A stretch of DNA of 64,000 nucleotides from an uncultured Poribacteria bacterium (GTDB lineage Bacteria; Poribacteria; WGA-4E; WGA-3G). A program made the position numbers and the translations under genes. The notes below the pieces were generated by a model. It had not been told where the DNA came from, made no database searches, and saw only the letters and a program-made list of their open reading frames with translations. Positions 50,430-58,547 of this stretch are shown here, in pieces; within the stretch, counting starts at the first letter, position 1; every line of letters begins with the position of its first letter. The stretch spans positions 320,001-384,000 of the forward strand of contig OX638351.1 in the NCBI GenBank assembly GCA_951813565.1. The letters are read 5' to 3'.

Positions 50430-50720
50430 TTACGGGGTTGAATCACCACCACAATTATTATCTGAAGAACAACCGCAGTTAGCGTCAGCATTACCAGGAT
50501 CAAGACAGTCACAGTTGTAGCTACCAGAGCCAGACAATTGATTGGCGCTGCCACAACAGCCACCAGTCACAGTCGTATCTCCCCCGCAACATCCTTTCGC
50601 TGCCTCAGACTCTGAGGTATCCCAACTCCCTGTTAACATGAAAATACAGCCACCAACAAACAGCAAGGCGATCACTAAGTTACCAATCGTCTTTTGATGT
50701 GTTTTCAACATTTTACTCAT
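50430..50720 (-). CDS. Secreted Cys-rich small protein P1 (96 aa, possibly truncated)
   Basis: Conserved MSKMLKTHQ..GGCIF.LTGSWDTSE.EA leader; 9 Cys after it. Confidence 0.75.
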   Translation of the reverse strand: MSKMLKTHQKTIGNLVIALLFVGGCIFMLTGSWDTSESEAAKGCCGGDTTVTGGCCGSANQLSGSGSYNCDCLDPGNADANCGCSSDNNCGGDSTP

Positions 50721-50861
50721 TATTCTTTCCCATATAGGGGGTTTGTAAAATACAAAAGTTATACAGAGTTTAACTAAAAAATATAAAACTTTACCTGGTC
50801 GCAACGCATGTTTGTGAGGAGACACGCGTAAAGGCATAGGATCAAGTTTCTATGTAAGAAC

Positions 50862-50890
50862 ATGATACCTGAACAGCCTATTTTTGTCAA
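50862..50890 (-). promoter_or_regulatory. Sigma70-type promoter for P1
   Basis: TTGACA-17 bp-TATCAT. Confidence 0.7.
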
Positions 50891-50976
50891 GTTCTTTTGT
50901 AGAAACATAGACGGAAGGATCAATCGGTAATATTGGAGGGATGGATACTCGTGGTATCGTATCATAGAACCTGATA

Positions 50977-56211: not shown

Positions 56212-56355
56212 TATTCTTTCCTTTCACATATAGGGTTTGTAAAATACAAAAGTTATACAGAGTTTAACTAAAAAATATAAAACTTTACCTGGTCGCAACG
56301 CATGTTTGTGAGGAGACACGCGTAAAGGCATAGGATCAAGTTTCTATGTAAGAAC

Positions 56356-56384
56356 ATGATACCTGAACAGCCTATTTTTGTCAA
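56356..56384 (-). promoter_or_regulatory. Sigma70-type promoter for P3
   Basis: TTGACA-17 bp-TATCAT, identical to 50862-50890. Confidence 0.7.
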
Positions 56385-56471
56385 GTTTTTTGTAGAAAAT
56401 ATGGACGGAAGGATCAAGAGGTGGTATTGAAGAGATGGATATTCGTGGCGGCTGTATCATAAAACTTGATA

Positions 56472-58547
56472 CTACAGATAAGGCGTCATATCCCATAGCA
56501 GGATAGTGCCATCAAAACTTCCGCTTGCCAAAATCTTGCCATCCGGTGAGAAAGCGAGATCATCAATGTCTGTGGAATGTCCCCAGAAGGTATGGACGTA
56601 TTCCCCTGTGGCGACCTCCCATAAATGGATGGCCATCTGCTCTAAACCATTTTTCCACCAAGTGCCGGAAGCGAGATACCGTCCACAAGGTGAAAATGCC
56701 AGCCGATAGGTACAAGAAGCATCTGCGGGTAGCAGTATCGCCATTCGTGTTTCTAAGGTTGCTGCATCCCACAGTCTAATCTCATTAGCTATTTCCCATC
56801 TCCGTTCGCAAGACAACTTACCGGCAACGAGAGTGCCGCACGGAGAAAACTTGATACTGCCGGGAGTGACAGCCGCATCAGTTGGCTGCTGCGTCCCCAA
56901 CTCCTGTTTCCACTCAATGAATTGTTGGATTTCTTGGGATCGCCCTTTATATAGCGATGTATCTTCTAAGATTGTGTCTAAAGGGAGTGAACCTACCTGT
57001 TCACCATTCTCTACATTCCAGACCCGTGCAGTTCTGTCACGGGATGCGGTGACGAGCTGCTTACCATCAGGGTGAAATACCACATTTGTAATCGCATCCG
57101 TGTGCCCTATGAGTTCGTGCCGCTTCTCCCATTGATGCGTGTCCCATACATAGATCTCACCGGACAGAGATCCACTGACCAAACAATCCCCTGTCGGTGA
57201 GTAAGCTATCCGACTAAAACGTTTCTCATGTCCAGTCAGTTTAGCAATTAGGGTGCCAGATGTAATATGCCAGACGTTGATAGCGATGTCGGTGCTATGG
57301 TGGACTCCTAAGGCAGATGCAGCAAGAAAGTCTTCACAAGCAAGAAATTCTTCACAAGGGGACAAAACACATCTACGACCCAATCTAATACCCAAAGAGG
57401 ACTCCTCTGTTTTGGGACGGAAGATTCGTTGTAACTGACGATTCATTACAGACCAGACCAGAAATCCAAATCTGAGTCCACTAATCAACGTCTTTCCTTT
57501 TTGAGAGAAACGCAACCATCTGACGATGGTTGTATGTGCATCAGGCATAGGCACGACTCTAATTGATTTGTCTGCTGCCCATACTCGGAATTCGCGTGCG
57601 TTAGCGGCTACGAAATGTGTCCCATCGTCTGAAAAGCAATATAATGTCCTGCGCCTTTCAAATTCCAAAGTGTCTACCTTTTCGCGCTGCACCGTATCCC
57701 ACATCACAACCTTTCCCTCATGGACTTCTGCAACACGCAATGTTCCATCAGGCGTATAAGCAAGTTTCATATAAGTCGTGTTGCATGCGGAATACACTAT
57801 TTCTGAGGTAGCGTTGTGAACATTACACACTTGCACATCGCCATTCCTGTGCGCCGATGCAAGGTATTGACCACACGGGGAAAATACAAGACCTTGAAAT
57901 ATCAAAGGGGCAGGACAACCAAAGTCTATAATATGTTCACCGGTGTCTATATCTGAAATCGTTATAGTGTCCTGAGGAGACACAGAAGACACATGCGCGA
58001 GTAGATGCCCATTAGGTGAAAAGCAGATAGGCAAGCTATGTCCCTTCGTATCTTCATCATCAATCAGGAACCGCTCGACGGGTTCATCAGATTTTGTTTG
58101 CCAACTGTAGACAGCAGTTCGTCCGCTGCTGGACATAGCAAGATATTGCCCATCCTGCGAAAAATGGAGCGCATTAACACTGGAACCACCCATATTCCCA
58201 CGGTAGTCTATATTAGTGACGCACCGCAGGGTTTGTGTGTCCCATACCTTAACGATGCCATCCGCGTTGCCGGTAGCAATCCACCGCGCATCCCGAGAAA
58301 AGGCGATCATATCAAGCATACCCCGTTCTGTCTCAAACAATGCAAGGGGGGTAAGTGTGGGTAAATCATACAACCAACATCCGATGAAAGTTGCGACAGC
58401 AAGAGACTTCCCATCGGGTGAAAATGAGATAGCCCGCAGGACACCACGCCCCAATCGGGCAATTGCCCCTTCGGGTAGTTCCCATGCTGTCACATCTGTG
58501 CCGTCAAGTGGTTTCAATGCGTTAGAGAAAGCGTCTCTATTTTCCAT
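56472..58547 (-). CDS. Large WD40 repeat protein
   Basis: AAGGAGA RBS, MENR start, WD40 repeats. Confidence 0.92.
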   Translation of the reverse strand: MENRDAFSNALKPLDGTDVTAWELPEGAIARLGRGVLRAISFSPDGKSLAVATFIGCWLYDLPTLTPLALFETERGMLDMIAFSRDARWIATGNADGIVKVWDTQTLRCVTNIDYRGNMGGSSVNALHFSQDGQYLAMSSSGRTAVYSWQTKSDEPVERFLIDDEDTKGHSLPICFSPNGHLLAHVSSVSPQDTITISDIDTGEHIIDFGCPAPLIFQGLVFSPCGQYLASAHRNGDVQVCNVHNATSEIVYSACNTTYMKLAYTPDGTLRVAEVHEGKVVMWDTVQREKVDTLEFERRRTLYCFSDDGTHFVAANAREFRVWAADKSIRVVPMPDAHTTIVRWLRFSQKGKTLISGLRFGFLVWSVMNRQLQRIFRPKTEESSLGIRLGRRCVLSPCEEFLACEDFLAASALGVHHSTDIAINVWHITSGTLIAKLTGHEKRFSRIAYSPTGDCLVSGSLSGEIYVWDTHQWEKRHELIGHTDAITNVVFHPDGKQLVTASRDRTARVWNVENGEQVGSLPLDTILEDTSLYKGRSQEIQQFIEWKQELGTQQPTDAAVTPGSIKFSPCGTLVAGKLSCERRWEIANEIRLWDAATLETRMAILLPADASCTYRLAFSPCGRYLASGTWWKNGLEQMAIHLWEVATGEYVHTFWGHSTDIDDLAFSPDGKILASGSFDGTILLWDMTPYL

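Follow-up and report, generated by a model that had tools for sequence, protein, structure and literature searches.

A variable family of cysteine-rich small proteins encoded upstream of WD40 genes in one Poribacteria genus

Layout of the array and its transcription signals

The window analysed here is a 64,000-nucleotide stretch of a Candidatus Poribacteria genome and contains three small genes, P1 (positions 50430-50720, 96 aa), P2 (52931-53374, 147 aa counted from MSKM) and P3 (55738-56211, 157 aa), all located on the minus strand. Three WD40 genes (50977-52989, 53606-55705 and 56472-58547, minus strand) have identical 3' ends, ...GTILLWDMTPYL, and each is followed by a conserved spacer of 230-260 nt and a small gene; the three cassettes of the original prediction (WD40 3' end, spacer, small gene) are thus all present. 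The predicted overlap of P2 with the WD40 gene downstream of it was also seen: the P2 stop codon lies inside the start of that gene, with an overlap of 59 nt if the GTG start codon is used and of 11 nt with the next ATG, at 52941, which is the likely start. As had been proposed, no modifying enzyme or transporter was found within 50430-58547. About 12 consecutive cassettes of the same layout are present on G036:C9, from another Poribacteria genome. The layout exceeds chance and recurs in other Poribacteria genomes.

The WD40 gene at 56472-58547 is the first of four further genes of the same WD40 clade (clade A; the others are at 58659-60635, 60671-62713 and 62732-64810, minus strand) that have no small gene between them, the last one extending past the window end. 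At its downstream edge, the array is bordered by an N-terminal fragment of an STT3-like oligosaccharyltransferase (43596-44423, minus strand), which is adjoined by a DDE transposase (42610-43551).

The two top promoter matches in 9.4 kb are located upstream of P3 and P1. The σ70-like promoter of P3 (56356-56384, minus strand; TTGACA-17-TATCAT) matches the consensus at 11 of 12 positions and is kept across genomes; that of P1 (50862-50890, minus strand) is also an 11/12 match. The spacer in front of P3 (56212-56471, minus strand) houses this promoter, an AT-rich 5' UTR of ~140 nt and a Shine-Dalgarno site. A 39-nt deletion has removed the promoter from the P2 spacer. Promoter and UTR are also conserved at copies that have no WD40 gene upstream. 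Since, in addition, the similarity of small-protein cores tracks the downstream and not the upstream WD40 gene (see below), the actual working unit is promoter, small gene and downstream partner, rather than the originally proposed WD40 gene, spacer and small gene.

No variable homopolymer tract was found in the promoter across 17 copies. An Rfam search of positions 44000-64000 returned no match at E up to 1, and RNAalifold applied to 14 5' UTRs gave -0.86 kcal/mol and 3 pairs only, i.e., no conserved RNA structure; we therefore propose no cis-RNA. Directly 3' of the P3 stop codon there is a stem-loop (55706-55737, minus strand) with a 13-bp stem, a T-rich tail and an MFE z of -4.6; a stem-loop is likewise located 3' of type-A orthologues in G006 and G036. 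An in-frame read-through fusion of the small protein and the WD40 protein was considered because one G036 cassette has a single stop codon between the two frames, and was rejected as a general mechanism since neither P2 nor P3 shares a reading frame with its WD40 gene.

Expression had been named as a point to be checked. A 366-nt contig from an RNA library is 100% identical to positions 50349-50714; it covers P1 alone and points only weakly to transcription of this gene, as a single contig from one poly-A library that could be due to DNA carry-over. Run X1 yielded no contigs. Four short contigs over 55303-56019 came from sequencing run X10, whose RNA status was guessed, and were not used as evidence.

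Anatomy of the small proteins

The N-terminal tail is conserved among P1, P2 and P3, which also have in common a single membrane helix and the segment GCCGG...GGCCG. In their alignment most of residues 1-57 are invariant and divergence begins beyond, which bears out the common leader and the CCGG...GGCCG segment noticed earlier. The leader is composed of a tail of ~14 residues and a hydrophobic helix of ~20 residues, and its hydrophobicity peak is 2.85 versus 0.57-1.43 within residues 1-60 of 17 WD40 proteins. In the AF2 model of P3 (40 sequences; pLDDT 40), a helix at residues 10-29 is the sole predicted element.

The sequence ..FVGGC in the leader, whose cysteine is invariant in the family alignment, is compatible with a PROSITE-type lipobox pattern. 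In distant members (P0054, P0056, P0060-P0068 and L015), however, this cysteine is replaced while the helix is retained, which makes a lipobox doubtful. A conserved [ST]-x-A motif beyond the helix may represent a site for signal peptidase, in which case the anchor would be removed.

Both P2 and P3 contain 17 cysteines, 16 of them beyond the membrane helix, in agreement with the original count. Their cores had been considered dissimilar; the family alignment instead shows one cysteine framework with hypervariable loops, P2 combining the leader found in P1 and P3 with another loop set, and P3 carrying a variable 16-cysteine ectodomain. Of the 78 family tails, 32 have exactly 16 cysteines. A Thr-rich stretch separates two GCCG-type vicinal pairs, which hardly vary; a minimal relative of 113 aa (L029, 2855-3196) keeps these pairs and little else. 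The tails consist of 14% G, 13% C (12.9%) and 10% each of S, D and T, are acidic (D+E 16% versus K+R 5%) and lack a hydrophobic core. N-x-S/T sequons are not enriched in them (98 observed versus 122.4 +/- 9.2 in shuffles).

P1 had been described as equal to P3 up to ANCG and then ending early. The breakpoint is indeed sharp, since DNA identity between the two is 237/249 from the ATG to ANCG (and 231/256 in the spacer) and 19/38 just beyond. P1 is not truncated, however, but represents a conserved short class whose C-terminal end is ..NCGGDSTP. In 3/3 cases the gene downstream of the short class encodes a 255-aa membrane protein with an N-terminal TM segment, and for P1 this gene is located at 49563-50330 (minus strand); two more tandem copies are present at 47871-48665 and 46686-47456. 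The AF2 model of this protein has a pLDDT of 78.5, with values above 90 in the C-terminal domain. Foldseek found no match to the model in the PDB at E <= 0.001, and VIA-align of the full model matched the N-terminal helix alone (Z <= 5.3).

Searches of Pfam and NCBIfam retrieved nothing for 40 family members, PDB sequences gave no match, and the ESM Atlas contained no usable match for the small proteins. The family is not described in the literature searched, a search of limited depth. The earlier statement that no such system has been described agrees with these results.

Pairing, selection and distribution

Double WD40 propellers are encoded 3' of P2 (50977-52989) and 3' of P3 (53606-55705), the latter being the presumed cognate partner of P3. 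The partners match PF00400 at E values of 1e-43 to 1e-54, with many propeller models over their full length. When they were compared with σ70 fusions, only WD40/propeller families appeared among the best 25 Pfam families listed per partner, and, unlike a sigma-helix-propeller (ECF57) fusion, the partners have no N-terminal hydrophobic segment, as was also found for the product of 53606-55705. Like the ECF57-type sigma-TM-WD40 fusions and the exported WD40 double propellers of this genome, the partners are 14-bladed members of one large WD40 family and occur together with a single membrane helix; their propellers, however, have neither signal nor helix, are encoded separately and fall into the other main clade of the tree.

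WD40 ORFs make up just 2.4% of the genome (64 ORFs, often in tandem). Across genomes, the N-terminus of a WD40 protein is encoded downstream in 35 of 52 leader-bearing gene rows and the 255-aa protein in 3; the WD40 linkage of leader homologues, which the original prediction had asked to be checked elsewhere, is thus observed. All four small-gene-linked WD40 genes of this genome fall into one 14-member clade of 40 paralogues in a quick tree, and 10 of the 14 clade-A genes have no small gene upstream. The type-A cassette is retained as a pair between species, and the WD40 protein encoded at 53606-55705 is 81% identical to the one encoded 3' of the type-A small gene in G036. A diverged subfamily (II), found in 14 of 36 congeners and devoid of the CC pairs, occupies a second locus of the same genome (L029), 24-45 nt upstream of WD40 genes. 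A singleton class of ~85 aa (five genomes) and one ~108-aa gene in a sixth genome have no WD40 neighbour. The family was found in one Poribacteria genus only, with a copy number of 0 to ~14 among congeners.

The NG86 dN/dS of the leader is 0.05-0.23 at dS of 0.4-0.9, with many synonymous and few non-synonymous changes; for the rest of the protein in the same pairs it is 0.39-0.87 where dS is informative. The leader is under strong purifying selection and the remainder under weak constraint. Core similarity correlates with similarity of the downstream WD40 protein (Spearman 0.74, 0/2000 permutations, n=16) and shows no clear correlation with that of the upstream one (Spearman 0.30, 212/2000 permutations, n=12). 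Tandem duplication and common descent inflate both statistics, and physical linkage would by itself produce the downstream correlation. The P2 core is 68% identical overall to that of P0050, whose leader variant differs. Together with the sharp P1/P3 breakpoint, this combination of similar cores with different leaders upholds the predicted shuffling by recombination in the conserved block.

Possible role of the small proteins and relation to known systems

The reading that we favour, tentatively, is that the small genes encode lineage-specific, exported, membrane-anchored miniproteins whose variable ectodomains are displayed at the cell surface and which are paired with cytoplasmic WD40 partners. 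Each small protein would begin with a brief, basic tail in the cytoplasm and continue with a single, strongly conserved TM helix, probably in N-in/C-out topology, followed outside the membrane by an acidic, Gly/Ser/Thr/Asp/Asn-rich domain with ~16 fixed, presumably disulfide-bonded cysteines and fast-changing loops. Every small gene would be served by a strong promoter and a ribosome-binding site of its own and would precede a cognate partner on the same strand, usually a signal-less double WD40 propeller of ~690 aa and, for the short class, the 255-aa membrane protein. The arrays would grow and be reshuffled through recombination in the conserved block, which extends from the WD40 3' end through the spacer into the leader. 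Of these elements, the anatomy, the pattern of selection, the conserved pairing, the co-divergence with the downstream partner and the restriction to one genus were observed. The resulting surface repertoire may be directed at the sponge host, at phages or at other cells nearby, and the cytoplasmic WD40 protein may serve as a docking site for the invariant tail or helix. The ~14-residue cytoplasmic tail argues against such docking, since it offers a small docking surface, and the partner model itself has to contend with the clade-A WD40 genes that lack a small gene and the singleton class that lacks a WD40 neighbour. We regard it as rather improbable that the pair forms a two-part transmembrane recognition module, in which a WD40 double propeller, diversifying in parallel, reads the invariant cytoplasmic tail and helix of varied disulfide-rich receptors or identity tags on the symbiont surface. 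If it did, bacteria would here possess a repertoire of variable receptors for recognising hosts, phages or kin, and the unexplained expansions of WD40 "eukaryote-like proteins" in sponge symbionts would gain a first function.

The same unpaired genes, on both sides, would be expected if there were no functional link at all, with independent small genes and WD40 genes co-amplified by unequal crossing-over in a WD40-rich recombination hot spot. The number and frequent tandem arrangement of WD40 ORFs, the strong hairpin between P3 and its WD40 gene and a co-divergence explicable by linkage alone fit this explanation as well. We nevertheless consider it unlikely, though deserving of serious attention, because the two leader subfamilies, deeply diverged and located at separate loci, are each found directly upstream of WD40 genes, several cassettes show start/stop overlap or a gap of 24-45 nt, the type-A pairing is conserved across species, and the short class is accompanied by another, constant partner in 3/3 genomes.

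The original prediction had spoken of a polymorphic peptide/partner system. What was found is indeed an undescribed polymorphic family, and its link to WD40 genes extends to other genomes, whereas the toxin/immunity, RiPP and metallothionein readings offered with the prediction each fail testable defining features. A secreted toxin or bacteriocin, exported by the leader as a disulfide-rich peptide with the WD40 or 255-aa protein as immunity, would account for the conserved N-terminus and variable C-terminus, the directly downstream, co-diverging partner, the mosaic cassette arrays and the change of partner type with core class. Pfam and NCBIfam, however, revealed no family of toxins, secretion systems or immunity proteins; the strongly acidic ectodomains are unlike membrane-active bacteriocins, it would be unusual for a peptide that is exported to have a signal-less propeller of 690 aa as its immunity protein, and all cassettes are full-length with their own promoter, with no orphan C-terminal tips, all of which makes this reading quite improbable. 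We find it very unlikely that the products are modified secreted peptides, i.e., RiPP-like precursors or substrates of the glycosylation machinery encoded nearby, with cross-linked or glycosylated Cys/Ser/Thr-rich cores: the leader is a membrane helix rather than a soluble recognition leader, sequons are not enriched, and the flanking genes scanned in the window, at L029 and in G036 included no RiPP enzyme, peptidase or ABC exporter. Such a reading would suit a conserved leader with a hypervariable core and the Thr-rich stretch between the CC pairs, and GT-C enzymes do adjoin the arrays (STT3-like in the window and G036, PMT_2 at L029); the neighbours of the G036 array further include an outer-membrane barrel, a GT2 enzyme and a fucokinase/GDP-fucose pyrophosphorylase. 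Metallothioneins are small cytosolic proteins in which cysteine makes up about a quarter to a third of residues. Exported relatives binding metal at the cell surface through vicinal CC and CxC/CxxC motifs could explain why the GCCG-type pairs are nearly invariant, and little else kept in the 113-aa relative, in acidic tails without a hydrophobic core. The tails sit behind a membrane helix and contain only 13% cysteine, though, subfamily II has no CC pairs, no metal transporter is adjacent, and hypervariable loops with a co-diverging partner would be unexpected in a metal buffer; metal binding seems to us the least probable role.

Poribacteria are dominant, uncultured sponge symbionts. A role in host interaction is commonly ascribed to their large sets of eukaryote-like repeat proteins, WD40 proteins among them, which have no known partner or ligand (Kamke et al. 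2014, PMC3909097). Our finding genetically ties a small, probably surface-exposed and fast-evolving family to one clade of these WD40 genes, and the pairing may help to explain the abundance of WD40 genes in sponge symbionts. If it is functional, it defines pairs of proteins that can be tested and offers a marker for surface diversity among strains of sponge microbiomes.

Compared by description, the favoured surface-displayed miniproteins resemble the variable surface lipoprotein multigene families Vlp, Vsp and Vsa of Mycoplasma in having tandem genes that are constant in their promoter, their 5' region and their signal or anchor and variable in the external part, and in a strain-dependent copy number; they differ in the lack of a tandem-repeat ectodomain and of a variable homopolymer tract (17 copies), in the doubtful lipobox and in the WD40 partner of each gene. 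With the polymorphic toxin/immunity cassette arrays reportedly described by Zhang, Aravind and co-workers in 2012 they share a constant N-terminus, a variable C-terminus, a directly downstream partner and recombination in the constant part; here, in contrast, there is no trafficking domain and no recognisable toxin or immunity family, and the genes are complete with their own promoters. Conotoxin- and defensin-type superfamilies are animal genes for cleaved secreted peptides. Although the present proteins are bacterial, paired with WD40 proteins and equipped with a highly conserved hydrophobic segment of helix length, they have the same general plan of a constant signal region, a fixed cysteine framework and hypervariable loops between the cysteines.

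Array layout and exchange between cassettes

All elements listed in the original prediction are present in the window (G000:C1:320001-384000, part of a complete 5.43-Mb genome). The array genes discussed here all lie on the minus strand and are given 5′ to 3′ along it. Four adjacent WD40 genes with no gene in between (62732 to 64810, running past the window end; 60671-62713; 58659-60635; 56472-58547) precede the small gene P3 (55738-56211), which is followed by a WD40 gene (53606-55705), the small gene P2 (52931-53374) and a further WD40 gene (50977-52989), whose start is overlapped by the P2 stop, as had been noted. 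The third small gene, P1 (50430-50720), is followed by three tandem genes of a 255-aa protein (49563-50330, 47871-48665 and 46686-47456). Further along are genes for a 335-aa WD40 protein with a hydrophobic N-terminal segment (44503-45510), a 275-aa STT3-like fragment (43596-44423) and a DDE transposase (42610-43551).

The repeated layout of a WD40 3′ end, a 230-260-nt spacer and a leader common to the copies can be seen in the DNA alignment of the window copies (A2), and in the protein alignment (A1) P1, P2 and P3 are invariant across most of residues 1-57 and differ afterwards. P1 and P3 agree at 231 of 256 positions in the spacer, at 237 of 249 from the ATG as far as the ANCG codons and at 19 of 38 immediately past ANCG, a drop that is a sharp recombination breakpoint. 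The P2 core reappears in a homologue, P0050, behind another leader variant. Both results bear out the proposal of shuffling by recombination inside the conserved blocks. Core similarity followed that of the downstream WD40 protein (Spearman 0.74 over 16 cassettes, each a small gene with its downstream partner; 0 of 2000 permutations as high) and only weakly that of the upstream one (0.30; 212 of 2000 permutations; n = 12). This pattern of co-divergence, together with the P0050 mosaic, places recombination in the WD40 3′ end/spacer/leader block. The type-A (P3) pair is kept in another genome, G036, where the WD40 protein encoded after the type-A small gene and that of the window share 81% identity, versus 31-47% for the remaining array WD40s.

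A DNA run with the same organism label has an 18-nt insertion at position 54454, in the WD40 gene 53606-55705, and clustered base differences, which are strain-level variation inside the array. Elsewhere in the window are a gene for a 474-aa protein in which a Planctomycete cytochrome c domain (PSCyt1) is joined to a WD40 propeller (40115-41539), PSCyt2/PSD1 and DUF1501 genes (32959-36958), and a long respiratory cluster in one orientation (5881-29459) with cytochrome c oxidase subunits and assembly genes, multihaem cytochromes, Rieske, cytochrome b and an ABC-2 transporter.

The small proteins and signs of their expression

Forty family members, drawn from 45 homologues and the window copies, were aligned (A3). 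From N- to C-terminus they carry a basic tail, a hydrophobic stretch of ~20 residues, an acidic [ST]-x-A segment, a GCCGG...Thr-rich...GGCCG segment, a CxC and ~10 more cysteines. P2 and P3 have 17 cysteines each, one in the helix and, as originally counted, 16 beyond; exactly 16 are found in 32 of 78 family tails. The description of their cores as dissimilar did not hold, since the cores have ten Cys columns in common beyond the CC pairs, each invariant or almost so, and variation is confined to loops. The 78 tails consist of G (14%), C (13%), S, D and T (10% each), A and N (8% each), with very few hydrophobic residues, a composition that points to a small domain in which disulfides or metal, and not a hydrophobic core, provide the stability. 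Because a basic tail precedes the helix and an acidic region follows it, the positive-inside rule fits a putative N-in/C-out orientation. AlphaFold2 modelled with confidence only a helix at residues 10-29 (mean pLDDT 40). No match to Pfam or NCBIfam (E up to 1) was obtained for any of the 40 members, and neither a profile search against PDB sequences nor the ESM Atlas returned a known family.

The leader gave dN/dS values of 0.05-0.23 at dS 0.4-0.9 (Nei-Gojobori, alignable pairs; in three near-identical pairs dS was too small to be informative), and it is therefore conserved as protein, beyond homogenisation through recent gene conversion. For the remainder of the same pairs, fixed cysteines included, dN/dS was 0.39-0.87. 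Each small-gene ATG is preceded by a purine-rich Shine-Dalgarno site, and the best two σ70-type matches within 49400-58800 precede P3 and P1 (11/12 positions, TTGACA-17-TATCAT); the P2 spacer has no -10 region, owing to a 39-nt deletion. The promoter and 5′ UTR are kept even without an upstream WD40 gene, as in genome G015, where a fucokinase gene precedes them (alignment A5). A poly-A "transcriptomic" run contained one 366-nt contig identical (100%) to 50349-50714, that is, P1 with an 81-nt trailer, and nothing else matched across the 6.2 kb compared; this is weak evidence that P1 is transcribed, DNA carry-over being possible. Past the P3 stop is a 13-bp stem-loop that has a T-rich tail, and of the 31 small genes examined, 4, chiefly type-A orthologues, have a similar hairpin (z ≤ -4.6) behind them. 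For such cassettes, expression of the small gene may exceed that of its WD40 gene.

Downstream partners

The working unit is the small gene with its downstream partner. The expected WD40 adjacency was recovered elsewhere: over all loci analysed, a WD40 N-terminus lies downstream on the same strand for 35 of 52 leader-bearing gene rows (leaders identical to each other were entered as one, duplicate loci of the window's own genome were excluded, and two genes were entered twice). Since duplication gives rise to arrays, these rows do not count as independent events. WD40 ORFs make up 2.4% of the window's own genome (64 ORFs, phmmer E ≤ 1e-20). In the other 17 rows the 255-aa protein is downstream in three, neither partner in 13, and one leaves no room. 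The partnerless rows include one ~108-aa gene (G022) and a ~85-aa singleton class, consisting of the leader and CxxC...CxCC without the large Cys domain, which in five genomes keeps its place beside a conserved housekeeping gene, away from any WD40 (loci L008-L012 in G033, G027, G007, G011 and G009); the query used found none in the window's own genome. At L026 16600-17322 (G036:C9), one small ORF and the next WD40 ORF share a frame with a single stop codon between them; the P2 and P3 cassettes are out of frame with their WD40 genes.

When the whole genome was scanned for short ORFs rich in Cys and with a helix at the N-terminus, two more emerged, at G000:C1 ~1.560 and 1.563 Mb, each separated by 24-45 nt from the WD40 double-propeller gene that follows it. 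Their leaders are distantly related to those of the window, with P0061-P0068 as intermediates joining them. This subfamily II occurs in 14 of 36 congeners, again with a spacing of ~2.4-2.9 kb, and a WD40 start is downstream in 17 of its 24 rows (the two own-genome copies counted in). That pairing is preserved over such leader divergence is the strongest argument for a putative functional link. Directly upstream of the second-locus cassettes (L029 2855-3196; G000:C1 ~1,559,855-1,560,196) is a gene whose 113-aa product has a helix in its N-terminal part, two vicinal Cys pairs of the GCCG type and a tail rich in Pro, Thr and Gln; this protein may be a minimal family relative.

The WD40 partners are 14-bladed and contain WD40 repeats and no other domain. 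None of 17 examined had a hydrophobic N-terminus (maximum 15-residue Kyte-Doolittle mean 0.57-1.43 versus 2.85 for P3). A quick maximum-likelihood tree split the 40 paralogues that are 600-800 aa long into two clades (100% SH-aLRT); all four small-gene-linked WD40s fell in a 14-member clade that also holds 10 unlinked genes.

P1, taken earlier for a copy that ends early, is not a broken gene: its ..NCGGDSTP ending recurs in P0011, P0012 and P0015. This short class is followed by the 255-aa N-terminal-helix protein in all three cases (G020, G015 and the window). The latter has an acidic linker after its helix and a C-terminal alpha/beta domain predicted with confidence, for which a structural search gave no match. 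It has 193 homologues (E ≤ 1e-5), the few named ones being Poribacteria hypothetical proteins, and ~20 diverged paralogues spread over the genome. At 46431-50330 the tandem copies are set apart by conserved ~0.4-0.9 kb spacers carrying repeated small ORFs on both strands.

Neighbourhood, distribution and interpretation

The G036 array, of ~12 cassettes, is flanked on one side by genes for a GT2 glycosyltransferase, a bifunctional fucokinase/GDP-fucose pyrophosphorylase and an LPG_synthase_TM-type membrane protein, and on the other by those for a 342-aa protein and an 806-aa STT3-like protein, to whose N-terminus the window's 275-aa fragment is 65% identical. At L029, the genes after the two cassettes encode a 340-aa barrel of the Phenol_MetA_deg type and a PMT_2 GT-C enzyme. 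Since glycosylation-type genes thus flank arrays in G036, the window and L029, the Thr-rich stalk could conceivably be glycosylated; N-x-S/T sequons show no enrichment (98 observed versus 122.4 ± 9.2 expected). In the window (42610-44423), the STT3-like oligosaccharyltransferase gene is cut to its first 275 codons beside the DDE transposase gene.

The best-supported reading is a variable miniprotein family, exported or surface-anchored, each member coupled to a partner gene. Because the tail and helix are conserved far beyond the needs of an export signal, they would be retained and contacted by some partner, for which the neighbouring signal-less WD40 protein is the obvious candidate. Physical linkage alone could be the source of the correlation between cores and downstream WD40s. 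Mere co-amplification of the two genes, a toxin with its immunity protein, a modified peptide and metal binding were weighed as rivals; any of these may hold instead, and each fails at least one testable feature.

Subfamily I, with the window-type leader, was found in 12 of 36 congeners; neither it nor subfamily II occurred in 24 genomes from seven other genera of the order. There are 0 to 14 matches per genome. Searched against 1.84 billion representative proteins, the leader profile matched only 32 (E ≤ 0.001), of 47-222 aa and with the leader N-terminal, except in P0027, an ORF called from a start further upstream, in which it begins at residue 76. A full-text literature search returned no account of the small-protein family or of the small gene/WD40 pair, and the passages in which Kamke et al. 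(2014; PMC3909097) report WD40 domains to be highly abundant in Poribacteria mention no such small-protein partner.
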